Below, one piece after another: positions 6,222 to 58,644 of a stretch of 64,000 nucleotides of DNA (position 1 is the stretch's first letter; each line of letters opens with the position of its first letter). Under the pieces are notes generated by a model. That model made no database searches. It saw nothing but the letters and a program-made list of their open reading frames with translations, and had not been told where the DNA came from. A program made the position numbers and the translations under genes. Source of the DNA: a virus (Duplodnaviria; Caudoviricetes); the IMG/VR virus record IMGVR_UViG_3300010163_000003, positions 154,432-218,431 of that record; one strand, written 5' to 3'.

Positions 6222-7661
6222 TTAATTTATTGCATCAGCGCCCCACGGACTTCCAGTTGCAGAGCCATTGTAATAAATATGTTTTACATGACTAAATGCA
6301 GATTGTTCTATTGTTGAAACAGTATTTGGAATTGTTATACTTGTAAATCCTGTGCAATGATAAAATGCGCCATATGTTGCGTTATGACCTCCGCCAATAC
6401 TTGTAATGTTGTCAGGTATTATTAAATCGCCTGTAAGACCACTACATTCGCCAAATGTCCCTTTCTGTATACATGACATGTTTTTTGATATTTTTAAACT
6501 ACCATTAAATCCAGTGCATCCATCAAATGCATATTCTCCTACTGATGTCACGGTGTCTGGAATAGTTAAATCAGCAATCAAACTAGTACAATTTCTAAAT
6601 GCCTCATTGTCAATAACAGTAATATGATTAGGAATTGTTAAGAATGGTCCTAATTTTGAACATCCATTAAATGTAGAATTAGGAATAGTTGTTATTGATT
6701 TAGGGATATTTGGCATTGATTCTAGTCTAGTACAACCTAAGAATACACCGATCCCCATATGTGTAACACTGTCAGGTATAACAATATCTTTAATGCCAGT
6801 TTTTCTAAAAGCAAAATCTTCTATACTAGTTATTTTATCATGTAATATTATCTTTGTAATGCCAGAACAATACATAAAAGCTGAATCTGTTATAGTAGTT
6901 ATGCTTTCTGGGATAGTTAATGTGCCAGTAAAGCTACCATTAGAAAAGGATTGTTTACCTATATAAGTTACTTTGTCTGGTATAATTAAAGGACCAGTAA
7001 GGTTAAGACCATCAAGAGCCTTATCCCCAATATATGTTACACCTTTAGGGATATGTAATTCGCCACTAAAGGAACGACAATTAGCAAATACATTATTATT
7101 TAACCTAGTTATGTTCTCTGGAATTGTTAAAGAACCTGTAAATCCAGTGCATAATCCAAATGCATTTTCGCCTATTTCTGTAACGCTATTCGGTATAATT
7201 AAATTACCCGTAAAGCCACTACAAAAATAAAATGCATTGCTTCCGATACTCGTTACGCTATCTGGAATAACCAAATCTCCGGTGAGAGTTCTACATTTAT
7301 AAAATGCATAATCTCCAATATGAGTAATAGTATTCGGGAATGTTACACCAGTAATATCTGTGCAACCATAAAAAGCACCAGTACATGATGTCATTTTGGT
7401 AGAAGAATTAGGGTCTTCGTATTTAGCTATACCATCTGCTATTGCAAATACTTTATAGCGTTCTCCGTCAGAACCAGTGAAATAATCTGGAATATTTAAG
7501 ACTCCATTTTCATCTTTAAATCTTAATATTTCGTCTCTATTTTCTTGTGTAATAATAAAATCGTTAGATGGTAATTCAGGTTCTTCTTCGGCTTCAACAA
7601 CGGAAGGCCATGACGAATTGTTAATGATTCTATTATAAATAACATCAGAAAAATTGGACAT
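6222..7661 (-). CDS. BspA/TpLRR-type leucine-rich repeat protein (LRR_5), candidate adhesin
   Basis: Many tandem LxIPxSVTxIGxxAFxxCxxL repeats; C-terminal cap GSPWGA. Confidence 0.9.
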   Translation of the reverse strand: MSNFSDVIYNRIINNSSWPSVVEAEEEPELPSNDFIITQENRDEILRFKDENGVLNIPDYFTGSDGERYKVFAIADGIAKYEDPNSSTKMTSCTGAFYGCTDITGVTFPNTITHIGDYAFYKCRTLTGDLVIPDSVTSIGSNAFYFCSGFTGNLIIPNSVTEIGENAFGLCTGFTGSLTIPENITRLNNNVFANCRSFSGELHIPKGVTYIGDKALDGLNLTGPLIIPDKVTYIGKQSFSNGSFTGTLTIPESITTITDSAFMYCSGITKIILHDKITSIEDFAFRKTGIKDIVIPDSVTHMGIGVFLGCTRLESMPNIPKSITTIPNSTFNGCSKLGPFLTIPNHITVIDNEAFRNCTSLIADLTIPDTVTSVGEYAFDGCTGFNGSLKISKNMSCIQKGTFGECSGLTGDLIIPDNITSIGGGHNATYGAFYHCTGFTSITIPNTVSTIEQSAFSHVKHIYYNGSATGSPWGADAIN

Positions 7662-46877: not shown

Positions 46878-48275
46878 TTAATCATCATCAAGCAATTTAC
46901 CTATTAATAATCCACCAGCAATTAGACCAGCAGCTTTAAATCCGCCGTGATGCATAAATGATTTGCCTACGGCATCATCTATGCCACTCATAAATCCTTT
47001 TTTTGCCCCAGTCTCAGCGGCATTTTCAACAGCTTCAGCAGCTTCTTTACCAGCGCCGCCTATACCATAATTATTGTACGTATTATTGTATATGTTAACT
47101 GTTGCGCCTTCACCAACGTTACCTACATTAACTCTACCACCTGAGACATTATTAGTGCCATATCTAGTAGCATTAGTTGCTTCTTCACCAACTACTCGCT
47201 TTTTCATTCCAGAACCCATTTGTTTTCTTACACTACTACCTGCGCTATTATTCGTAGCTTCATTAACAGCAGGGGAACCAGACTCCCCTTGTTTAATCTT
47301 TGCTTTTTCAGCTTTATTTTTTCTTTTTAATTCTTTTTCAACATTTCTTCTATAAGCTTTTGCAGATGCAGAATCTAAATTATATGATTTTGCAACATCT
47401 TCTGTATATCTTTTATTTTCCCAATCATATTTCGATGGATCGCTACGACCATGATGATTAATAACACCATCTTCAGGGAGACCATATCCACTAAGTTGAT
47501 CTGCCCATTCATCTCTTGCTCTTTCATTAATTCTTTGATGTAATTTTTTTTGCTGATTTGCATTTAACTTAGAAATAGATTCAGCGTCAGGCAAGAAATC
47601 ACTTAAAGTATCATCATTTATCATGTTTCTTCCTCCAGTTGATGTATTATTGTTTATATTTGTAGAAATAGGTTTTTCAGATTTAGATCGTGGTTTTTGA
47701 CGGGATTTAGGCTGAGAATTTGGTTGATGTTGCGAACTAGGTTCTGGTTGATACTGACCTATTTCTTTTTTAAAAATACTTGGATATTGACGAGCTAAAT
47801 CTTGATCTTGATCAAAAATATTTTGTCTTATTTTTGAATAAAGAGTCTGAGAGGCATTACTAGGTAATTCTCCATATCCATTAACTCTTTCATTAGGTAT
47901 TAAAGTATTTGTACTTAAATCTACTACATCCCAATCGTTTTTAGAGCCTACATCTATTTTGATTGTGTTTGGAGTTGTTACTTTTTCTGCTTTTTTACTA
48001 ACTAAAGTTCTAAAAGCATTATTTGTAGCTTCTGCATTGTTCTTTGGGAAAAATTCATCTATATAGCTTTTAAGAGTTCCAGCATCTAAAGGTTGCTGAC
48101 CATTTTGAGTAAGTATAGAATATCCTAATGCCCAATCAGGAGCAACTGTAGTAGTTACATTTAAAATTGATTTATCTTTAAAAAAATAATCACGAAGACC
48201 GTTTATAGCGTCTACTTTTTGTGATGATGTCATGCCATTTATGGTTGATCTTAAGTCGCTCATGCTCATGGCCAT
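46878..48275 (-). CDS. Low-complexity protein with C-terminal hydrophobic anchor
   Basis: Ends AAGLIAGGLLIGKLLDDD. Confidence 0.6.
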   Translation of the reverse strand: MAMSMSDLRSTINGMTSSQKVDAINGLRDYFFKDKSILNVTTTVAPDWALGYSILTQNGQQPLDAGTLKSYIDEFFPKNNAEATNNAFRTLVSKKAEKVTTPNTIKIDVGSKNDWDVVDLSTNTLIPNERVNGYGELPSNASQTLYSKIRQNIFDQDQDLARQYPSIFKKEIGQYQPEPSSQHQPNSQPKSRQKPRSKSEKPISTNINNNTSTGGRNMINDDTLSDFLPDAESISKLNANQQKKLHQRINERARDEWADQLSGYGLPEDGVINHHGRSDPSKYDWENKRYTEDVAKSYNLDSASAKAYRRNVEKELKRKNKAEKAKIKQGESGSPAVNEATNNSAGSSVRKQMGSGMKKRVVGEEATNATRYGTNNVSGGRVNVGNVGEGATVNIYNNTYNNYGIGGAGKEAAEAVENAAETGAKKGFMSGIDDAVGKSFMHHGGFKAAGLIAGGLLIGKLLDDD

Positions 48276-48289
48276 TAGTAATCACTTCC

Positions 48290-48583
48290 TTATTCCGAAG
48301 CATACTGAACTCTTATTTTGTTATCTAAAATAACAGCGCATTCTGGACAGCATATTCCAGGTTTCTCACATCTTCTAATTAAATAACTCTTACCGCATTG
48401 TGGACAAATAACTTTCTTATCTTTACGAACACTTTTATTATACGTAGGAATATTATTTTCTTGCCTGATTCTCTGAACACTAACTCTATTATATTTAATT
48501 ATATCAGCAATTTCAGAGTCTTTCAATCCTTCTTCTTGTGATAATCTTTTAATTTCATTAATAATAATTGGACTTGTATTCAT
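48290..48583 (-). CDS. HTH plus zinc-ribbon DNA-binding protein
   Basis: GLKDSEIADIIKYNRVSVQRIR helix-turn-helix; CPQCG...CCPEC zinc ligands; RBS AAAGGAG. Confidence 0.7.
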   Translation of the reverse strand: MNTSPIIINEIKRLSQEEGLKDSEIADIIKYNRVSVQRIRQENNIPTYNKSVRKDKKVICPQCGKSYLIRRCEKPGICCPECAVILDNKIRVQYASE

Positions 48584-48636
48584 GACAAAAATATTAAACT
48601 CCTTTCATCTAGTATATTTCAAACGCTTTATATAAT

Positions 48637-48646
48637 TATAATATAC
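48637..48646 (-). promoter_or_regulatory. Candidate late-promoter motif GTATATTATA
   Basis: The same 10-mer is intergenic at 39220-39229 and 8127-8136, each time just upstream of a minus-strand gene. Confidence 0.4.
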
Positions 48647-48738
48647 CGCTTAAAATTACTCTTTTATTGTAGTATAGCACAACATTTTTTAAAACGCCAG
48701 TATAGGCAAAAAATTTGATATATATATTTTTGGAATTG

Positions 48739-48770
48739 GCTCTTCGTTTACTCGAAGAGCTTTTTCTTTT
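48739..48770 (+). terminator. Intrinsic terminator at the arm junction
   Basis: GCTCTTCG-TTTACT-CGAAGAGC followed by TTTTTCTTTT. Confidence 0.7.
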
Positions 48771-48890
48771 ATACCCCACCCCCTTTTGGGAGGAACTGGA
48801 AACCGTGAGGTACAGTAAATGCAGATATATTTTGTGGGGGGAAGCAGGTATTAACTTTTAACTCAAAAAAAAGATCGATACCCCACCCCC
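48771..48890. repeat. 13-bp C-rich direct repeat ATACCCCACCCCC
   Basis: Exact copies at 48771-48783 and 48878-48890, with a G6 run between them. Confidence 0.8.
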
Positions 48891-48909
48891 ATTTGTGTGT
48901 TCCAACTTT

Positions 48910-49240
48910 AATGGTCTTTGCAAAAATTTATGCGAAGTATCTCTTAAGAAGCATAGACCCAAGCCGAAACAGATTACCATATTTATATGGTAGTTTGTCT
49001 GCGTAAGATGGTAACTTGCGCACCGATGATGGTAAACCAATATATTGTGATTCGTATGCGGCTGATATGCGACATACGTACACAAGTGTTTCACCGTTAT
49101 TGGAATTGTTCTATTGTACGCATAGACGTGCATTAATGGCGTTCCAGTGTGTATGGACACACACGCTGTTGCATATATCAACATATGCATTAAGGGAGCC
49201 AAGAACACATGTACTAATACATGTACCATGCTGGTGTCCA
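48910..49240 (+). ncRNA. Putative structured RNA / leader upstream of the polymerase gene
   Basis: Consecutive and nested stems found by eye, e.g. 48969-82/48985-98, 49001-07/49015-21, 49053-58/49073-78, and 49107-12/49202-07 enclosing 49115-32, 49137-45/49194-201, 49147-62 and 49170-89. Wobble pairs are G-U in the plus sense. Confidence 0.55.
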
Positions 49241-49269
49241 AAGGAATAAAGAAAATGGAGGAATGTAAA

Positions 49270-52200
49270 ATGTTGAGCATCATCATCGCTATCATGAACG
49301 TGCTCATGGGGAAGATTGTCTCTAAGGCAGTCAAAGCCATGAAGCAAATCACCACCGGACTGTATGTGCAGTATAACACAGAACTCTGCAACGAAAACTA
49401 TATCTGGTATCTTGCTCGCAAAAAGCATGCAAAGCTCTACCGTCACGACCCCAAGCGTGCTTATAAGAAAGCACTGAAGACCCTCGAAAAAGAAGCGGAA
49501 AGAAGAGCGGAAATAGAAACCCGTATTCGCATAAACCGTATGTTAGGCAAGTATTATAACGACGACAAAAACGTAAGGCACCTCATTCGCTTGTTCAACT
49601 CCAAGTATCATAAAGAATCTATCCCTGATGACCTTATGACTATAGGTTATCAGGTTCTTAATTACCTCAGAAATGAAGGTAATAAGATGTATGAACAGAC
49701 TCGTAATGCCAAGATTGGCTGTGCAGCTATACTCACTATTATGGGTGTTATCGATATTGGCAACTTCGAATCTGACGCAAAAGACGGCAAAATCGTTATC
49801 AACAAAGAAGCTCTTGAGAAAATCTCCGATGTTACCCTGAAAAACAATCTGGATAAGGTGCTTAGTGGAGAAAAGCTTACAAGTGTGTATAATGGCTATA
49901 CTAAGGGCAGGCAAACCGCTGTATGGAGCAATATGCTGAATGCACTTCGCAAATATGTTAAGTATATTGACCATGACGTAGTAGTAACCAAGGAATGCGT
50001 ACCTGTCATTAGCCTTGCAGAAAACGCTTTCTACACTTGGAAGAAGAATGAAGAAGGCAAAAACGTACCCGTCCTTAACACAATAGAAATCGATGGACAA
50101 ACTTATTGCTACGTTCAGCTTAACGATGAAAATGGAGAAAGCAGAGTCGTTTCTAGGGGCAATGTAAACGAATATAAAGAACAACACAATGGACGTGAAC
50201 CATACTTTATTGTTGATAATGCCTCTTCCAGTGTATTAGCGCGTAAAGTATTCAATATTAGCAAAGACAATCTTATCCTTACAGTTAAGCCACAAAACAA
50301 ATCATCAGAAGCAACACAATCCCTTATGGAAAAGATACTGGATAATGGGTTCTACGACGCAAGCACTGGTACTCTTTTTAAGTTCCTCGCAATGCCTGCA
50401 AGCAAAATGAAAACCTGTCAGTTCGTATTCACAAGCATCCCAGTAGCGTGGGTTAATAATCCTAATGCGTATATTGGCTATGTATGGGGAATGGCTATGG
50501 GCCTCACCAAGTATGCCAATGTATTTCGCAAATATCACAACGATACAAAGCACATCGTTACGATGGATGAAGTTGTAAACACTTTCAGGAATGAAGAATT
50601 CCAGGGATATAGGCTTGTTAATGAAAATGGGCTTGTTAATGTTGCAAAGACATGGAGTCGCTTTGGTCTTGCAATGTCTTCCACATTCTCACTCATGGAG
50701 CTTGTTACCAAAAATCCAGAGATGAAGGATGTATACGACAAATCCATTGGCGTTGCTAAAACTTTACGTGTAAAAGATGCTAGCGTAAGAGTCAAAAGCC
50801 CGTTCCACGTAATAAGTGGTATCTTCAACATCCACAAGCCTCTGACAACAAAGCAGATGGAGGAAAACACCCGCAAACGCTTTGATAAACTCGTCGCTTT
50901 CTGTGACAGAGAGTCCGAAATCATAAATGTACCATCCATTAAAGATAACCTTAACAAGGCTAAAGAACTCTTTGCGGACAACAAAACGGACGAATGCGTT
51001 AATACTCTTGAAGCTATTGTAGCTGATGTGAAGAAGCAAATTGAATATGAATACGCAATAGTGGAAGAATATAACCGTTCTGGGAAGAAGCTCGTAGACG
51101 AAATAGGTATGTTTGCCGAGAACGTAGGCACTCTTGCGTTGCTGTCAGATAAGATAAAAGACCTGAAACTTGACATTAAGAACGGCATTGCTGGCGAAGA
51201 CGAAAAGACTTTGACACCTGGCGATGGCGAAATGCTTGCAAATATCAAAATTATTGCTGGTATAGCTACTCTTCTTAAGAAAATTACCATAGATGAGTAT
51301 AAAATCATCATGGACTGGTGGAATAGCAGCGATAAAATTCTTGCCAACATCGAAGAAGATAGCGAAATCCGCAACATTATTGCCAAAATACCACCAGCTT
51401 ATACTATAAGGCATGGCGGGAAGAAGGGCTTGTTGAAACTCGCAGACCTTGGTCAGCTTCTTGATACAAAGAAAAATGGCGAAATAATCGTTGACAACTA
51501 CGATATTCTTACCCCTGACAGTGCCGAGAAGTTTAGTGTTGAAAACTGGGAAGATGCAGAGTTTAGCGTTTGCTTGGTAGGTAAAGTTCACAGTGATAAA
51601 GATTTTATCAACACCAATGCTTTTATGCTGAGCGCACTGAAACTGTCACCGAAGCAAATCGTGTCTATCGCTAAGACAATCATTGATGAAATGGTTGATG
51701 CGCTGAAAGACCCTGACAAAGCCGTTGCATTCTTTGCAAAATATAGTGACGACTTCAATTGTCAAAATGGTCCTGCATCTCTGTTGGCAATGAATAAGAA
51801 ACTCATCAAAATGGACATCGTTCAAACTGCTATATTGACAACGATTAAAGTTGTAATCAATAATATGGCATGCGGTAGAATGAAAGTTCCTGGCAACACA
51901 TCATTCATTTCTTGTGACTGGGCTGAACTGCTTAACCTGTGGTTGAAAGATGAAATGGCTGAAGCAGGTGTGCACATTAAAACACTTGATGAGTACGCAA
52001 AAGAACAAGGCATTAATGAAGGCTATAAAGGTCACTATAGCAATAAATCTTGTGAGGCCATGATAGCTCGTAGCCCTGGATATGGCTGGCAAGAGATTGT
52101 TAAGCTTACTCTCGTCAAAATCGATGCATGGTGGTGGAACCATGACGTATGCGAACTGAGCGTATTCGACGGTATCTGGGAGAACCTTCAGGGTGCCGAT

Positions 52201-54369
52201 TTTGATGGTGACAAAATTCACCTTATTTTCAATAATAATCCAGTTGGCAAAATGTTCGTAGACGCTATCCGCCACGGGACTAAACTCATCAATAAGAGAA
52301 ATCTTGCTAACTTAATCTCTATTTACCTTACAGAGCCAGGTGTTATAGTCGAAGCCAAGAAGAAGAAAGAATTCACTTGGAAAGCTATTACAGCTATGCT
52401 CATTGGAACCCTTAATGGCGATATGGTAGGTTTGTTGTCTAAGTCAGCTATGACTGCTATTGATTTAGCCAATGAACTTATTATCCTGTCCGAAATGTCA
52501 AGTCTTACTGGCTATAAAGTTAAGTTCTATAACAAATTCGATCAAGAAAAGTTTTATATGGGACGTCTTGGTCATAAAGGCGAAAAGATGTTTGTAAGTG
52601 ACAGGTTTAATAACCCTGAATCTGCTGGTCTTGAAGTGCCATGCGATGAAAATATCGGAAAGCCAATCGATCCTCGCCTTACTGTTAACGGCGACTATAT
52701 TCAGAATGAACTTACTGCTGAAGAGAGAAAAGCTCTTGGAGATTTGTTCGATGTTGATGGAGATAAGCGTCTGTATACTGGATGGTTTATTGGCACATGC
52801 AATGGCGAGAAATTCATTTATGTAGAAGCTCCTACACTTGGCAACCGTCTCCCTGCTATTGATAAAAACTCAGGTATGACTAAGACAGAAAAGATAATGA
52901 TTCATGGCAGAGAAAAGTCCGTCAAAGTATTCTCATATACCCGTAAGACATGGTCTTTTATTGCAGATATAAGTCGTATGGGCAAGGATGAAGTAGAAAA
53001 CGGCTACTACTATGAAAAGCTCGTTAAGGGAGAAACCATGCTTGCTGAAGACAACAATATTCTTGCTGGCACTAAAACTGCTGAAGAACTTGAAGACATT
53101 GCTGTTGAATTTGCGAAGCTTGGCATCGTTAATGGCTGTGAATGTGGGCGTGAAATTGACCGCACAAAGAATGGTTTTGGCCATGTCTGGGGTCTTCTCA
53201 TTAATGCAATCGCAGCTCATCGTGTATACTCTGATTGGATGCGCAAAGGCCAGTGTAATGAGCTTCTTGTCCGCAATCAGTATATCAGCACATCAACTCT
53301 CGGAGTTCTGTATCAATATGTACAAGCCCGTGAAAAAGAAATTGACAAAATAATGGGCAATGGCATCAAAATGGTTCCTTATGTTGCTACTCTGCTTAAT
53401 AAAGACGAGTATGATGGCGTATGGAAAATTATTAAGAGCAATGGCGGAACAAACAAAGGTTATACAGTCACGAAGCTTGAAGTCATTCGTAACTCATACC
53501 TTAATGAAATCAGGGGTGTTGACATTAACGAAAATCCTGAACTGATTGAATGCGCTCAAAAGGCTGCATGCAGAAGGATAATCGAAATGTGCGATGAACT
53601 CAATGTTCCTTATACAAGCGCGGCTGTTGCAGCATTCTTTATGGGAACTAAAGAAAAGACAGTTGGAAGCTTCTCTTGGTTGCTTGCTGATGAGCTTGCT
53701 GAAGTTCTGAAAAGAGACCCTGATGCACGCAGGATTATCAAACTACCTTGCCGTGAAGTTATTAGCCTTAAAGTAGAGTCAGACAACTGGCTGATAGCTA
53801 CTATTCCTGCCTATAAGGTCAATCGTAAGGATGGTAAGAAGAAGGTCAAGATAGGTACTAAGGAATTCCCGATAGAGCAACTTGATGGCGTAGCCCAAGG
53901 AGAAATACCGAACGAAGACATCTTCCAGATGGGCGATTGCAACTTTGCGGCTATTCCTTGGAAAAACAATAGCGGCGATACCCTTATCACTGACAATATT
54001 GCTCCTCGTTTTAATATCATTGGTAAGGACAAAACTAAGGAAGAAATCGGAGCCATTGCAAATGCTTTGTTCAATAAGGCTGATGGTGTACTCACCAAAA
54101 TCATTGTTGACGAAGAAGGCAAAATCGTTGGTCTCATGGACCTTGGAGACAAGAACATTGTTACTATCGAAATTGACACCTATAGCCTTCCAAAATCATT
54201 CACTGGCACAAATTATAAAGCTGTTGCTACTGGTCTTGAAATCGCTACTTTTGTTGGCAAAACATTCCGTAGCTATGGCGTTAACAAAGAAACTGAAGCC
54301 TATAAAGGCGAAAAGTGCAAAACATCTATTACTGCCGGGAATAACATTGTTAATGTATTCGTCCGCTAA
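49270..54369 (+). CDS. Single-subunit two-barrel RNA polymerase, RdRP (QDE-1)/YonO-like family
   Basis: Ordered family motifs TPGDG, PPAYTIRHGGKKGLL, GRMKVPG, IARSP, catalytic LQGADFDGD (DFDGD at 52198-52212), VGLLS, EIDRTKNG and STSTLGVLY. Start moved to ATG 49270 behind GGAGG (1699 aa). Confidence 0.9.
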   Translation: MLSIIIAIMNVLMGKIVSKAVKAMKQITTGLYVQYNTELCNENYIWYLARKKHAKLYRHDPKRAYKKALKTLEKEAERRAEIETRIRINRMLGKYYNDDKNVRHLIRLFNSKYHKESIPDDLMTIGYQVLNYLRNEGNKMYEQTRNAKIGCAAILTIMGVIDIGNFESDAKDGKIVINKEALEKISDVTLKNNLDKVLSGEKLTSVYNGYTKGRQTAVWSNMLNALRKYVKYIDHDVVVTKECVPVISLAENAFYTWKKNEEGKNVPVLNTIEIDGQTYCYVQLNDENGESRVVSRGNVNEYKEQHNGREPYFIVDNASSSVLARKVFNISKDNLILTVKPQNKSSEATQSLMEKILDNGFYDASTGTLFKFLAMPASKMKTCQFVFTSIPVAWVNNPNAYIGYVWGMAMGLTKYANVFRKYHNDTKHIVTMDEVVNTFRNEEFQGYRLVNENGLVNVAKTWSRFGLAMSSTFSLMELVTKNPEMKDVYDKSIGVAKTLRVKDASVRVKSPFHVISGIFNIHKPLTTKQMEENTRKRFDKLVAFCDRESEIINVPSIKDNLNKAKELFADNKTDECVNTLEAIVADVKKQIEYEYAIVEEYNRSGKKLVDEIGMFAENVGTLALLSDKIKDLKLDIKNGIAGEDEKTLTPGDGEMLANIKIIAGIATLLKKITIDEYKIIMDWWNSSDKILANIEEDSEIRNIIAKIPPAYTIRHGGKKGLLKLADLGQLLDTKKNGEIIVDNYDILTPDSAEKFSVENWEDAEFSVCLVGKVHSDKDFINTNAFMLSALKLSPKQIVSIAKTIIDEMVDALKDPDKAVAFFAKYSDDFNCQNGPASLLAMNKKLIKMDIVQTAILTTIKVVINNMACGRMKVPGNTSFISCDWAELLNLWLKDEMAEAGVHIKTLDEYAKEQGINEGYKGHYSNKSCEAMIARSPGYGWQEIVKLTLVKIDAWWWNHDVCELSVFDGIWENLQGADFDGDKIHLIFNNNPVGKMFVDAIRHGTKLINKRNLANLISIYLTEPGVIVEAKKKKEFTWKAITAMLIGTLNGDMVGLLSKSAMTAIDLANELIILSEMSSLTGYKVKFYNKFDQEKFYMGRLGHKGEKMFVSDRFNNPESAGLEVPCDENIGKPIDPRLTVNGDYIQNELTAEERKALGDLFDVDGDKRLYTGWFIGTCNGEKFIYVEAPTLGNRLPAIDKNSGMTKTEKIMIHGREKSVKVFSYTRKTWSFIADISRMGKDEVENGYYYEKLVKGETMLAEDNNILAGTKTAEELEDIAVEFAKLGIVNGCECGREIDRTKNGFGHVWGLLINAIAAHRVYSDWMRKGQCNELLVRNQYISTSTLGVLYQYVQAREKEIDKIMGNGIKMVPYVATLLNKDEYDGVWKIIKSNGGTNKGYTVTKLEVIRNSYLNEIRGVDINENPELIECAQKAACRRIIEMCDELNVPYTSAAVAAFFMGTKEKTVGSFSWLLADELAEVLKRDPDARRIIKLPCREVISLKVESDNWLIATIPAYKVNRKDGKKKVKIGTKEFPIEQLDGVAQGEIPNEDIFQMGDCNFAAIPWKNNSGDTLITDNIAPRFNIIGKDKTKEEIGAIANALFNKADGVLTKIIVDEEGKIVGLMDLGDKNIVTIEIDTYSLPKSFTGTNYKAVATGLEIATFVGKTFRSYGVNKETEAYKGEKCKTSITAGNNIVNVFVR

Positions 54370-54459: not shown

Positions 54460-55569
54460 ATGAAAAGCGCTATTATTAATGTTGTTGTCGTTCCCACCAT
54501 GTCCGTTCTGTCCGCTGCTGATAAATCCAAAGTTCGCACTATTGTTTCTGCTGGCCTCAATCTTCCCGTCAACATTACCCGCTCTGATTTCGAGGCAATA
54601 TATGATAACGCAAAAGACATGACTCCGACAATCCACGATTTCATTCACGTTCGCGTAAACCGCAACAAAAAGCTTGAAGGCTTTTCTATCGTTGAAGACG
54701 ATAACGTTATTGATTCTAATGATGTCGCAGAAGAAAACAACTCTGACTACTTTGACTCTCTTATTGATGAAGCAATTGGCGCTCCTGTTGCTGAAGACAA
54801 CGCTTCTGATGATATTGATATTCCGTTTGCTTTTTCTGATGAAGAACTTAATAATATTAATATGGCACTCGATGATTCTAATGTCCCTGTAGCTGAAGCC
54901 GAACCCGTAAAAGAAGAGACTGAGCATATGACCGCTCTTGAAAAAGCCATAAACGATATGATGAATTCTTATTCTGATAACGAGCTGTACGATTATAGCG
55001 CTTACGACCCTGATCATATTCCTGATGAAGATAAGATGACCGAAGAAGAAGTCGAAGCAGCATGGGAAGCTTACGACAATTTTGTTCCTGAAGAAGAAAC
55101 AGCTCAGGCAGTTATCGATGAAGAAGCTATTGAAACTGTTAACAACAATGATGTTGATCGTGAATTTGTCAAATTTGTACACGATAAAGCTGTTGCTGGC
55201 AAATATCCGAGGTGGACTCAGAATATCGATAAGCGCAATCTTAACGAATATGCAACCATGATTGGCAAGTCTATTGAAGATATCGTTGAGAAATATCTGA
55301 TGGCTAACAAAAATAAACACGGCTATATCACATATTACTCCGTAAGACCTGAGTTCATCGCTAGATACTACGAACAAGCTTGCTATACGTCTTCTGACTA
55401 TAAGTGGTTTGTTGTAGTTAAAGGCAATAACGTAGAGCTTTACGAGAAAAAAGGCAACGAACATGTTTTCAATAAAACTGTTAATGCTACAGAATCACCT
55501 GATGCATATACTAAAGCTCTCAAAGTTCTTGAGAGTTATATGTTCCGTAAAGGTGTGTGGGCAGAGTAA
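54460..55569 (+). CDS. Highly acidic early protein
   Basis: ATG 54460 after GGAGG. Central ~160 aa are about one-third Asp/Glu and contain DDIDIPF. Confidence 0.75.
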   Translation: MKSAIINVVVVPTMSVLSAADKSKVRTIVSAGLNLPVNITRSDFEAIYDNAKDMTPTIHDFIHVRVNRNKKLEGFSIVEDDNVIDSNDVAEENNSDYFDSLIDEAIGAPVAEDNASDDIDIPFAFSDEELNNINMALDDSNVPVAEAEPVKEETEHMTALEKAINDMMNSYSDNELYDYSAYDPDHIPDEDKMTEEEVEAAWEAYDNFVPEEETAQAVIDEEAIETVNNNDVDREFVKFVHDKAVAGKYPRWTQNIDKRNLNEYATMIGKSIEDIVEKYLMANKNKHGYITYYSVRPEFIARYYEQACYTSSDYKWFVVVKGNNVELYEKKGNEHVFNKTVNATESPDAYTKALKVLESYMFRKGVWAE

Positions 55570-55587
55570 TTAGCCTTCGGCATTTAG

Positions 55588-55633
55588 AATGGGTTAGGGT
55601 TAGAATAACTTCTTCCCTAACCCATTTGTCTTT
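55588..55633 (+). terminator. Terminator-like hairpin
   Basis: AATGGGTTAGGG / CCCTAACCCATT perfect 12-bp stem followed by TGTCTTT. Confidence 0.6.
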
Positions 55634-55726
55634 GGAGCTGGAAAATGTAAATTCTCCACTCTCTAGACGAGAAGTCGTGATGAAAATTGTCACGACTATT
55701 CATAATGCCAGTCGCTGAAAAGATGG

Positions 55727-55754
55727 ATGAAAACAGCAAAGCTGTAAGCTCTGA
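55727..55754 (+). promoter_or_regulatory. Triloop-hairpin motif copy 1 (candidate phage RNAP promoter)
   Basis: ATGAAAACAGCAAAGCTGTAAGCTCTGA. Confidence 0.65.
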
Positions 55755-55802
55755 TGATAGTTATATCATTATCGTCATAACATCATCTAGGTGCAAACTT
55801 GG

Positions 55803-55830
55803 ATGAAAATAGCAAAGCTATAAGTTATGA
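55803..55830 (+). promoter_or_regulatory. Triloop-hairpin motif copy 2 (compensatory variant)
   Basis: ATGAAAATAGCAAAGCTATAAGTTATGA: the stem C-G pair is replaced by T-A. Confidence 0.65.
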
Positions 55831-55885
55831 TGATAGTGATATAATCTATCATCAATCCCATCTTTAAAGAAGGAGGTAGCTGAAA

Positions 55886-56554
55886 ATGGCTACTAAGTTA
55901 GAACAGATGAAGGCAGAAATGGAAAAGGGTTCTGAGGTTGAAACCAATACCCCTATTGCTTCTGCTAAGGATGATGCATCCGCTCATGTAAATACTGCTC
56001 CGGGTCAGACCAGGAAACCTTCTTGGGTTCCGCGCTGGGTAGCAGTAATGGGCGCTGACGGGCATTTTGCTAAGTTCGCCAAGGTAACGGCTACTGCTCC
56101 AAGGGAACAAGTGGTTACTGGCGACGACGGCAAAATCGTAGCGCTTAACATAGTAGCGGGCAGCACTCTCATCGGAACGGTTGATGTTCCCTCTGACTCT
56201 TCGATATGGTCTGCAAAGACTGCACTGAACAGGGTCAACAAGGAATTCACCGGGATGATTTCTAATCGCAAGATTGAATCTCCGAAAGATGGCAGTGCTG
56301 ACGTAATCTCGATAAGGTTCGGCAATGATTTAGAGCTGCGCATTTACGTGGGCGGCATCAATAACAGTGCCATTCCTGCTGAGATTGCGAACAAGCATGG
56401 TCTGGTGGTCTTCCATGGCTTACAGAGCATTGGTGGCTGGATGAATGACACTCTCATAACCAGCAACTTTGATGAAGCCATTGATTGGATAAAAGCTCGT
56501 ATAGCTCAACCCGACAATAAGACTGCGGACGAGAATTCTTCAATTCCTTTCTAA
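55886..56554 (+). CDS. Early protein with SSB-like acidic C-terminal tail
   Basis: RBS AAGGAGG; ends DENSSIPF. Confidence 0.75.
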   Translation: MATKLEQMKAEMEKGSEVETNTPIASAKDDASAHVNTAPGQTRKPSWVPRWVAVMGADGHFAKFAKVTATAPREQVVTGDDGKIVALNIVAGSTLIGTVDVPSDSSIWSAKTALNRVNKEFTGMISNRKIESPKDGSADVISIRFGNDLELRIYVGGINNSAIPAEIANKHGLVVFHGLQSIGGWMNDTLITSNFDEAIDWIKARIAQPDNKTADENSSIPF

Positions 56555-56567
56555 TGCTTTAAGGCTA

Positions 56568-56603
56568 AGGGGTACTCAGTGGTGGGTGCCCCTCGCTTTA
56601 TTT
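56568..56603 (+). terminator. Intrinsic terminator
   Basis: AGGGGTACTCA-GTGG-TGGGTGCCCCT then CGCTTTATTT. Confidence 0.6.
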
Positions 56604-56627
56604 GTAAGCATTAGAAGACATAGCTGT

Positions 56628-56655
56628 ATAAAAACAGCAAAGCTGTAAGATCTGA
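56628..56655 (+). promoter_or_regulatory. Triloop-hairpin motif copy 3
   Basis: ATAAAAACAGCAAAGCTGTAAGATCTGA. Confidence 0.65.
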
Positions 56656-56740
56656 TGCTAACATGCTTAGCAGTCGGTAGGTTAAGATGCGTCCATAACC
56701 AATGGGCGTGTCCAAATCTACCGAAAGGAGGGAATGCGTT

Positions 56741-57043
56741 ATGGCAAGACCTCTCATGTCATCCCTGAACGAGACAACTATCGAACAGGCTAGAGTTCTC
56801 ATGGTGAAACTCCTGCCAGAAATCGATGTGTCTATCGCTACGGGACAGTACGTGATATGCGCCGTTATGGGTTACATAGCTGCACAGAAGCGCAACGACA
56901 TCAGCCTCGAAGACGTTTATGACTTTGTCATGAGACTCTGCGGGGAGCATCGGTGGCGTGTGAGCAAGTGGCGAATAGGTCACACTCTACGCTACAGAGT
57001 GCGCAAGTTCGTTGCTGCTGTAAGCGAACTCGTAAAGGTGTAA
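56741..57043 (+). CDS. Hypothetical early protein (100 aa)
   Basis: ATG 56741 after AAAGGAGG. Confidence 0.65.
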   Translation: MARPLMSSLNETTIEQARVLMVKLLPEIDVSIATGQYVICAVMGYIAAQKRNDISLEDVYDFVMRLCGEHRWRVSKWRIGHTLRYRVRKFVAAVSELVKV

Positions 57044-57130
57044 AGTAAAGCGGACCCAGTTACGTCAAACCAAGCGTAGCTGGGATTCTCTTTAAAGAAC
57101 AAACTCAGATATTACTAGGAGGTAATCATC

Positions 57131-57340
57131 ATGAAAAGATACAAGGCTCACATACAGTATGGCGTAGGCGAAGAAGCTCCTTGGGGTTTCGATATTGTCT
57201 GGATTGATACCAAGACTATTATCGGCACTAGCCAAAAGATTGCAGATGCCATTGAAGACCTCAAATACAGCGCGATGATGGACTGCTATCTTCCTTCCCA
57301 TAAACCATTTGCAGACATCGCCTATTCTGAACCCGCATAA
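57131..57340 (+). CDS. Hypothetical early protein (69 aa)
   Basis: RBS AGGAGGT. Confidence 0.7.
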   Translation: MKRYKAHIQYGVGEEAPWGFDIVWIDTKTIIGTSQKIADAIEDLKYSAMMDCYLPSHKPFADIAYSEPA

Positions 57341-57343
57341 ACA

Positions 57344-57389
57344 CAATCCCCCTCGCTCCTTGCTTCACGGTAAGGGACGAGGGGGATTG
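57344..57389. terminator. Long, probably bidirectional terminator hairpin
   Basis: CAATCCCCCTCG...CGAGGGGGATTG, ~20-bp imperfect stem. Confidence 0.6.
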
Positions 57390-57493
57390 CTTTGTAATAT
57401 TTTTTTGCGAAGTGGGTTTTTAAGAATAGAGCATACAACGAGGCTTTCTAAATAGTTCCTTCGGCGTAGTGGCTTCTACATGGCTTTAAAATA

Positions 57494-57521
57494 ATGAAAA
57501 CAGCAAAGCTGTAAGCTATGA
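57494..57521 (+). promoter_or_regulatory. Triloop-hairpin motif copy 4
   Basis: ATGAAAACAGCAAAGCTGTAAGCTATGA. Confidence 0.65.
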
Positions 57522-57611: not shown

Positions 57612-57968
57612 ATGAAACTGTTCAATTTATTCCGTACACATATAAACAAGACTGCTGAAACCATGAAAACAGTTACGCTGTTTCAGGTATCAAGACGCGA
57701 CGAAGAAGGCATGCTCAGGAATCTCTCTGGCGATTATGTACCTCTTTATCGTATGGAGCCTGTGTTCACTTCTGGAATGAAAGGTGACACCGATAACATT
57801 CTGGCCAACAGCTTTAAGTTCTTCAATGGCATTGACGAGTCTACCTCGATGTTGAATTACTCCATGACAGTGGGCGATGTGGTGTGCATAGATAGTGCGT
57901 TCTATAGGTGCATACCACAAGGATGGTCTTACATGGGTGGAGACCTAGACATAGGAGGCGCTATCTGA
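57612..57968 (+). CDS. YodL-like protein
   Basis: FKFFN...YSMTVGDVVCID..FYRC...GW matches the YodL-family SLSVGDVV...YY.D..GF signature. ATG 57612 after AAGGAGG. Confidence 0.6.
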   Translation: MKLFNLFRTHINKTAETMKTVTLFQVSRRDEEGMLRNLSGDYVPLYRMEPVFTSGMKGDTDNILANSFKFFNGIDESTSMLNYSMTVGDVVCIDSAFYRCIPQGWSYMGGDLDIGGAI

Positions 57969-57978
57969 GCATAAGAAT

Positions 57979-58005
57979 AGCCTACGGTATCCACTGCCGT
58001 AGGCT
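57979..58005. terminator. Hairpin / terminator
   Basis: AGCCTACGGTA-N5-TGCCGTAGGCT with T-rich flanks on both strands. Confidence 0.6.
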
Positions 58006-58015
58006 TATTGCTTCG

Positions 58016-58065
58016 TAATTGGCTTTTCTAAAGCCAATTATAGCATAAAAATATGCGAATGTCAA
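58016..58065 (-). promoter_or_regulatory. Antisense consensus sigmaA promoter B with overlapping palindrome
   Basis: Minus strand TTGACA-17 bp-TATAAT with TG; palindrome TAATTGGCTTT-N3-AAAGCCAATTA at 58016-58040. Confidence 0.8.
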
Positions 58066-58102
58066 GCCCCCTGTGCGAATTTATTATGAGCACAGGGGGC
58101 TT
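58064..58102. terminator. 13-bp perfect hairpin between promoters B and C
   Basis: AAGCCCCCTGTGC / GCACAGGGGGCTT. Confidence 0.55.
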
Positions 58103-58130
58103 TAGGCACCTTTTAAGGCTTTTCCTATCG

Positions 58131-58180
58131 TAATCGGCTTTCCATAAGCCGATTATAGCATGAAAAACCCTAAAAGTCAA
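58131..58180 (-). promoter_or_regulatory. Antisense near-consensus sigmaA promoter C with overlapping palindrome
   Basis: Minus strand TTGACT-17 bp-TATAAT with TG and AT-rich upstream region; palindrome TAATCGGCTT-N5-AAGCCGATTA at 58131-58155. Confidence 0.8.
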
Positions 58181-58215
58181 GCAAAATACGTAAAAATATA
58201 TGGAGGTATAAGAAA

Positions 58216-58644
58216 ATGACTACCACAACTACCAAAACTATGGCTGAAATGACCCAAGAATGTAAAGAAGTGCTGGATTACTGCTCCAAAAAAGCTAAAA
58301 ACGGCATATTCTATGAGGGTACATTGCTCAATTCTATCTCCTGGAACGCTATTCATAAGATGTACAGCCGCCGTGACGTAGGTGGTTATACCTATATTAG
58401 CCTTACAGAAGAAGAAAAAGCGCTTTGCAACACTCTTTATAGAGAAGTAAGGTGCTTTTTAAAGTCTCGTAAGACTAAAGGAGGGTATAATCAGTATATA
58501 ATCAACGAAGAAAAGCTCTATGTCACCACCGTAATAGAGACTCCTAACGAGATTCCTGTGGTATTAAATACACATGAAGAGGAAATTCTTGAAGAAGAAG
58601 TCCCTAATGCCACCCCAATTGCAGTAGTAAACATCCCATTCTAA
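58216..58644 (+). CDS. Early protein with acidic tail ending IPF
   Basis: RBS GGAGG; ends HEEEILEEEVPNATPIAVVNIPF. Confidence 0.7.
   Translation: MTTTTTKTMAEMTQECKEVLDYCSKKAKNGIFYEGTLLNSISWNAIHKMYSRRDVGGYTYISLTEEEKALCNTLYREVRCFLKSRKTKGGYNQYIINEEKLYVTTVIETPNEIPVVLNTHEEEILEEEVPNATPIAVVNIPF

Follow-up and report, generated by a model that had tools for sequence, protein, structure and literature searches.

Immediately upstream of a giant polymerase gene in an uncultured phage lies an apparently lineage-specific, non-coding array of five abutting stem-loop domains (positions 48969-49224), which is most likely either the leader of an mRNA, private to this phage, or a site in the DNA close to the genome end. 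With somewhat less than even confidence, we read it as a lineage-specific, structured 5' untranslated leader that would act in the plus sense in the mRNA of this PF05183 polymerase. The window, by which we mean the whole 64-kb stretch of DNA analysed, is the final part of a 218,431-bp IMG/VR virus record with 34% G+C; the 115-bp end repeat of that record is an assembly overlap. Judged by sequence, the source phage, which is uncultured, is a jumbo myovirus belonging to the lineage of Bacillus phage 0305phi8-36, an assignment made because its portal is 51% identical to the portal of that phage. The tail sheath, tail, portal and large-terminase genes all lie on the minus strand within positions 1-48583, and the ORF lists give as the first gene of this structural module a 97-aa ORF (48290-48583, minus strand) whose product has counterparts at 70-83% identity in over 140 protein clusters. 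Syntenic loci are found in three relatives (L004, L007 and L009), and the high conservation of the 97-aa gene led to 25 further loci of the lineage.

On the other side of a divergent non-coding region (48584-49269; the intergenic region holding the element is 671 nt long) begins the plus-strand polymerase gene (49270-54369), which encodes 1,700 aa and matches PF05183, the RdRP/two-barrel family, with a Pfam E value of 9.5e-16. Its Shine-Dalgarno sequence, GGAGGA (49257-49262), stands 7 nt before the AUG at 49270, a start supported by orthology (MLSIII... here, MLAIIT... in L007). Exhaustive phmmer searching recovered four syntenic orthologs at about 20% identity, and the catalytic motif DFDGD is invariant when the five sequences are aligned (alignment A1). 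When the polymerase or this alignment was used in word-based protein searches, only the polymerase itself came back, the alignment matched only gp99-type or split paralogues in other contexts among viral contigs, and neither the region nor the polymerase gave a blastn or tblastn match in phage GenBank records. Although it is a different gene, gp107 of 0305phi8-36 (L002, about 6395-6420, minus strand), the first after the terminus there, has an initiation region similar to that of the polymerase (49255-49275): in both, 4 nt separate AATGGAGGAATG from AATG.

The structural evidence comes from folding both strands against shuffled sequences, the check that the preliminary description had put forward for its large RNA-like structure. 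On the plus strand, positions 48910-49240 fold at -108.9 kcal/mol (z -5.20), with none of 100 shuffles as stable, whereas the minus strand reaches -86.6 kcal/mol (z -2.40). The core (48965-49228) behaves in the same way, with z -4.84 on the plus strand and -2.13 on the minus strand, and it falls to z -2.53 when only Watson-Crick pairs are allowed, so that roughly half of the signal depends on G-U pairing, which is available in the plus sense only. Such wobble pairs, noticed at the outset as being G-U in the plus sense, make up 10 of the 89 core pairs. The strand asymmetry comes from the first three domains, the window 48970-49169 ranking 32nd among 2183 genome windows, and is absent from the second half of the element (window 49070-49269). 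With single-stranded DNA parameters the core is significant on both strands (plus z -3.9, minus z -3.2).

Identical helices recur in three fold frames, and most have pair probabilities of 0.8-1.0. The first domain, H1 (48969-48998), is a 13-bp hairpin with two G-U pairs, and H2 (49000-49022) is an 8-bp hairpin with the loop AUGGUAA; both have a pair probability of 0.97. H3 (49023-49103) is a long interrupted stem of 28 bp, including three G-U pairs, with main helices at about 1.0. It is followed by H4 (49108-49206; 0.48-0.95), a nested multibranch domain in which a closing helix, GUUCU/AGAAC (49108-49112 with 49202-49206; 0.75), encloses three inner hairpins at 49115-49132 (0.91), 49145-49168 (0.48) and 49170-49189 (0.95). 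The last domain, H5 (49207-49224; 0.86), is a 7-bp hairpin with no U run behind it and was negative in the terminator scan. The preliminary description had thus placed most of the hairpins correctly, those at 48969-48998, about 49001-49021 and about 49208-49223 being recovered along with the nested domain; its long interrupted stem is real but starts at 49023 rather than 49037, and its small hairpin at 49225-49235 does not appear in the minimum-free-energy structure.

The element is also set apart by its composition. No stretch of the genome alternates more between purines and pyrimidines than positions 48969-49224: 68.6% of the steps alternate, compared with 49.7 +/- 3.8% for the genome, and all 6818 windows sampled lie lower. 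The alternating runs include ACATACGTACACA and ACACACACGC. Superimposed on this alternation is the hexamer ATGGTA, which recurs at 48987, 49008 and 49029 with an exact phasing of 21 nt and is accompanied by an inverted copy, TACCAT, at 48975 (48975-49034 in all). No equally spaced hexamer triple arose in 2000 dinucleotide shuffles. ATGGTA is not clustered elsewhere in the window; an enrichment of the extended form RATGGTAA elsewhere in the window was set aside, as it stems from coding-strand matches alone. The three copies and the inverted one are repeated, helically phased sites, as in a terminase or initiator array, and this kind of arrangement resembles the protein-binding arrays found on duplex DNA. 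Phasing by 21 nt together with such extreme alternation is more typical of duplex-DNA sites than of an RNA.

Next to the element, the intergenic region has two conserved blocks. The first, an AGTATA-box block (48658-48740; ...CGCCAGTATAGG...ATATATATTTTT), was found by blastn against the intergenic regions of 28 relatives and occurs in all of them, no matter which gene follows, sometimes in duplicate; it probably serves the structural operon as a promoter or regulatory sequence. On the minus strand its boxes read TATACT, and once TGCTATACT. The second is a module at 48826-48853, reading ATATATTTTGTGGGGGGAAGCA/GGTATTA (the slash marks the boundary discussed here), which is conserved in an alignment (A3) that includes L004, L007, L009, L073, L078 and 0305phi8-36. 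Its lineage-wide form is ATATATTTTTGGAGGGGACCA(C or G)GT, then about 35 nt, then AACCCCACCCCC. In 0305phi8-36, whose genome was reported to be non-permuted and terminally repetitious (PMC3357382), the module ATATATTTTTGGAGGGGACCA/CGT coincides with an annotated terminal-repeat boundary, the 6479-bp repeat ending exactly at the homologous ACCA/CGT; the far boundary of that repeat has no motif in common with the near one. With the repeat boundary of 0305phi8-36 lying inside the conserved module, homology predicts the physical genome end of the source phage between 48846 and 48847, and a sequence-specific terminus common to the whole lineage. The element would then begin about 60-120 nt inside the predicted terminal-repeat end, and the giant polymerase would be the first gene inward from it. 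Hardies et al. proposed that the homologous end of 0305phi8-36 enters the cell first. A C-rich motif, ATACCCCACCCCCATTTG, which relatives keep some 35 nt inward from the terminus, occurs here on the plus strand at 48878-48895. This is its second copy; the motif ATACCCCACCCCC is found at both 48771-48788 and 48878-48895, flanking the predicted terminus, and relatives L074-L077 and L079 also have two copies.

These observations give substance to the main rival of the leader reading, which we nevertheless consider rather unlikely, namely that the element is a DNA-level site beside the genome end, serving for strand opening or for the binding of a small terminase, a replication initiator or an early-gene regulator. 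On this account the ATGGTA sites, two helical turns apart, would be embedded in alternating palindromes prone to form cruciforms or Z-DNA. The predicted end close by, the exact phasing, the strongest alternation in the genome and the significance of Watson-Crick-only and single-stranded DNA folds on each of the two strands all argue for it. Against it, the relatives that carry the terminus module have only 45-165 nt before their first gene, and have neither the array nor phased hexamers (no comparable case of phased repeats was seen near their termini), so that the terminus evidently works without the array. A duplex role would moreover leave the extra G-U stability of the plus strand unexplained, and the binding protein is only hypothetical.

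The idea that the element is dedicated to the polymerase family did not survive the comparison with relatives. Neither blastn at word size 7 nor nhmmer at E up to 10 revealed a homologue in 27-86 loci, nor did a covariance model built from the single sequence of H1-H3, and positions 48900-49254 have no counterpart elsewhere in the phage's own genome. An exact 26-mer of H3 had no match in viral contigs, and a conserved intergenic word gave only chance matches in unrelated coding regions of viral and metagenome contigs. Upstream of the polymerase genes of L004, L006, L007 and L009, in particular, there is no homologue in sequence or in structure. The space available differs greatly, with the C-rich motif standing about 45 nt from the first start codon in 0305phi8-36, 65 nt in L007, 100 nt in L073 and 165 nt in L004, and about 365 nt in the source phage. 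Upstream regions of relatives are also mostly unstructured (z +0.13 in L004, -1.5 in L007, -1.15 in L006, -1.66 for 0305phi8-36 gp99 and -0.31 in L073), the polymerase leader of L007 being only about 65 nt long and that of L004 a 165-nt unstructured sequence. The 225-nt leader of L009 is strongly structured and plus-biased (z -5.0 against -2.75), with two long hairpins of unrelated architecture. Strong structure therefore precedes two of the seven PF05183 genes of the lineage, those of the source phage and L009, in unrelated forms, and this, together with the failure to find any homologue, indicates that this phage acquired the element privately and that it does not belong to the enzyme family as such.

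Such isolation might be expected of a sequence with no dedicated function, that is, of a recent neutral insertion or expansion of cryptically simple, self-complementary alternating sequence that arose at a recombination-prone module junction and folds well only through its mode of origin. We think this improbable. It would account for the extreme composition and for the uniqueness of the element, both within the genome and among the 86 loci, and the junction does appear to be a hot spot. The polymerase of the source phage and those of L004, L007 and L009 are only about 20% identical though the adjacent 97-aa protein is about 80% identical, and other relatives have an entirely different first gene after the terminus; the divergence of the polymerases and the differing first genes imply that the junction exchanges genes quickly. 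Dinucleotide shuffles, however, keep the alternation and still fold about 5 standard deviations worse, and chance origin sits poorly with hairpins that abut nearly without spacers and with the argument that deletion pressure acts on the non-coding DNA of this lineage (Hardies et al., PMC2147016). An origin from a decayed gene was also considered and dropped, as no tblastn match to the genes that adjoin the region in relatives fell below E 0.3.

A structured RNA of a known class was likewise sought. A cmscan of positions 48000-50000 against Rfam 15 at E up to 10 gave four chance matches of 11-22 bits, against cut-offs of 37-100, and thus assigned the element to no RNA family; the preliminary description had proposed a search of this kind. 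The same search recovered a group I intron elsewhere in the genome (52.3 bits). That intron (RF00028, cut-off 50 bits, E 1.2e-11; locus L084:2259-2595, fold z -4.4) splits a second PF05183 polymerase (G000:C1:2047-6154, outside the window) into ORFs of 677 and 577 aa. The hairpin element is itself no such intron, since RF00028 does not match it even at E up to 10 and the polymerase N-terminus behind it is intact, with no upstream exon missing. ARAGORN found neither tRNA nor tmRNA. The four ORFs of at least 51 aa that overlap the element have no convincing Pfam match, the best (E 0.018) being below the cut-off.

Regulatory designs were examined next to the gene itself. From 48772 to the start codon there is no intrinsic terminator between the element and the polymerase gene, and no good-quality sigma-70-type promoter lies on the plus strand near the gene. 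Sequestration of the Shine-Dalgarno sequence finds no support: it is unpaired with a probability of 0.33, compared with 0.40 +/- 0.20 in 88 shuffled leaders. One fold frame does predict its pairing with the C-rich motif, but accessibility equal to that of shuffled leaders does not support translational masking. A riboswitch or attenuator leader was rejected on the same grounds, there being no terminator-antiterminator pair and no sequestration beyond chance.

What these tests leave standing of the preliminary description is a structured, plus-sense leader, made plausible by the plus bias of the G-U pairs, the absence of a terminator before the gene and the lack of any coding sign; a family-dedicated element is unsupported. 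We infer that the element is transcribed and acts at the level of RNA. Transcripts begun further upstream on the plus strand would probably end at an intrinsic-terminator-like hairpin with a 9-bp stem and a T run (48738-48771), which has no plus-strand gene before it, and the lack of a good sigma-70-type promoter close to the gene makes a long leader likely. Within such a leader the hairpins might protect the message from 5'-end-dependent decay, the long H3 stem might be an RNase III-type processing site, as in T7 early mRNAs, or the phased AUGGUA motifs might be the landing site of a regulatory protein. The structured, plus-biased leader of L009 also counts in favour of a leader role, as does the similarly plus-biased hairpin density of other intergenic regions in the plus arm. 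On the other side are the unstructured leaders of L004 and L007, the unoccluded Shine-Dalgarno sequence, the absence of strand asymmetry from the second half of the element and the significance of single-stranded DNA folds on both strands.

Two further proposals would tie the element more closely to the enzyme. According to one, the leading end gives rise to an independent structured ncRNA, whether a 6S-like decoy, a cofactor or template of the polymerase, or an early anti-defence RNA. A compact, multi-domain element of about 260 nt, comparable in size and z to the genuine group I intron of this genome and placed at the predicted leading end, would suit such a role, and the enzyme family prefers single-stranded templates in vitro, as seen with crAss-like gp66 (bioRxiv 10.1101/2020.03.07.982082). 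We regard it as very unlikely all the same, given the negative Rfam result and the lack of a promoter or terminator of its own. The 6S-like decoy of the preliminary description fails on these counts and on its architecture, since five separate domains take the place of the long hairpin with a central bubble and no Rfam 6S match was obtained; its RNA cofactor or template finds no support either, the element being absent upstream of orthologous and paralogous polymerase genes. According to the other proposal, to which we give the least credence of all, the single-subunit RdRP-family polymerase would load or initiate on the array, or the array would yield an early decoy RNA for it. Relatives of the enzyme transcribe single-stranded and not double-stranded DNA in vitro; hairpins extruded beside the DNA end that enters the cell would allow transcription to begin on DNA that is otherwise duplex. 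If true, the array would represent a novel type of structure-dependent promoter, with a loose likeness to the N4 hairpin or plasmid Frpo single-strand promoters.

The structure of the element also has to be seen against that of its surroundings. In a genome-wide fold scan its best 200-nt window ranks 35th of 4366. Structure is much stronger in two other intergenic regions, at 55560-55900 (z -11.5) and at 57960-58230 (z -9.0). Nearly every intergenic region of the plus arm contains a structured window and hairpin density is plus-biased, so that this density is a general habit of the plus (early) arm of the phage genome. On our reading the element is one instance of the early-arm hairpin habit rather than an RNA that the polymerase family requires. 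Many non-coding spacers in the right arm of 0305phi8-36 have been argued to be functional, and non-coding DNA in the lineage to be functional as a rule for the reason of deletion pressure given above (Hardies et al., PMC2147016). The regions at 55560-55900 and 57960-58230 hold repeated hairpin cassettes whose copies differ in a compensatory manner (CAGC..GCTG versus TAGC..GCTA).

If the leader reading is right, the element is one more heavily structured phage mRNA leader, helpful for annotation and in itself unsurprising. The analysis removes the suggestion that RdRP-family phage polymerases carry a dedicated structured RNA, and shows that, in a large and uncultured lineage of phages, the polymerase gene comes first on the inner side of a terminus that is predicted and conserved in sequence. 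The compositionally unique, helically phased stretch beside that terminus is a target for experiments on packaging, entry and early expression.

Comparison with better-defined systems helps to place the element. One comparison is with the early intergenic regions of the same phage at 55.5-58.2 kb, which resemble it in lying in the same arm, in having plus-biased structure and in preceding plus-strand genes. They contain candidate hairpin-motif promoters and host-type promoters fused to palindromes, and unlike the element they carry recognisable repeated motifs (the hairpin-motif promoter candidate has four copies at 55725-57515 and none upstream of the polymerase) and a normal purine/pyrimidine alternation (0.45-0.48, against 0.69 in the element). 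Group I introns of the RF00028 type are alike in size (about 340 nt) and fold z, but have flanking exons, whereas the element stands without exons before an intact, ortholog-supported N-terminus. For a DNA-level site the models are cosB R3-R2-R1 of lambda and pacL/pacR of SPP1, phased terminase-binding sites that adjoin the cut site, lambda cosN or SPP1 pac. Common to them and the element are short repeats that include an inverted copy and are spaced by whole turns of the helix, within about 200 bp of a genome end; those of lambda and SPP1 bind terminase, while the sites here are putative, the end is predicted by homology and relatives lack the repeats.

For a leader the models are different. 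The T4 DNA polymerase gp43 binds a hairpin in its own mRNA, an operator of about 36 nt that overlaps the ribosome-binding site. The element would be similar as a structure before a polymerase gene that the gene product could bind, in line with the autoregulation proposed in the preliminary description; the T4 operator, however, covers the ribosome-binding site, whereas here the Shine-Dalgarno sequence and AUG lie outside the robust hairpins and are occluded no more than in shuffled leaders. T7 early mRNA carries RNase III hairpins, for example site R1 upstream of gene 1, which encodes T7 RNA polymerase. Each of these sites consists of one hairpin, about 60 nt long and with a defined internal loop; cleavage there has been demonstrated, and the sites act on the mRNA and not on the enzyme. 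R1 is thus one hairpin and the element five predicted, abutting domains. The likeness, on the leader reading, is that long hairpins with imperfect pairing precede a phage RNA-polymerase gene which is among the first met when moving inward from the genome end.
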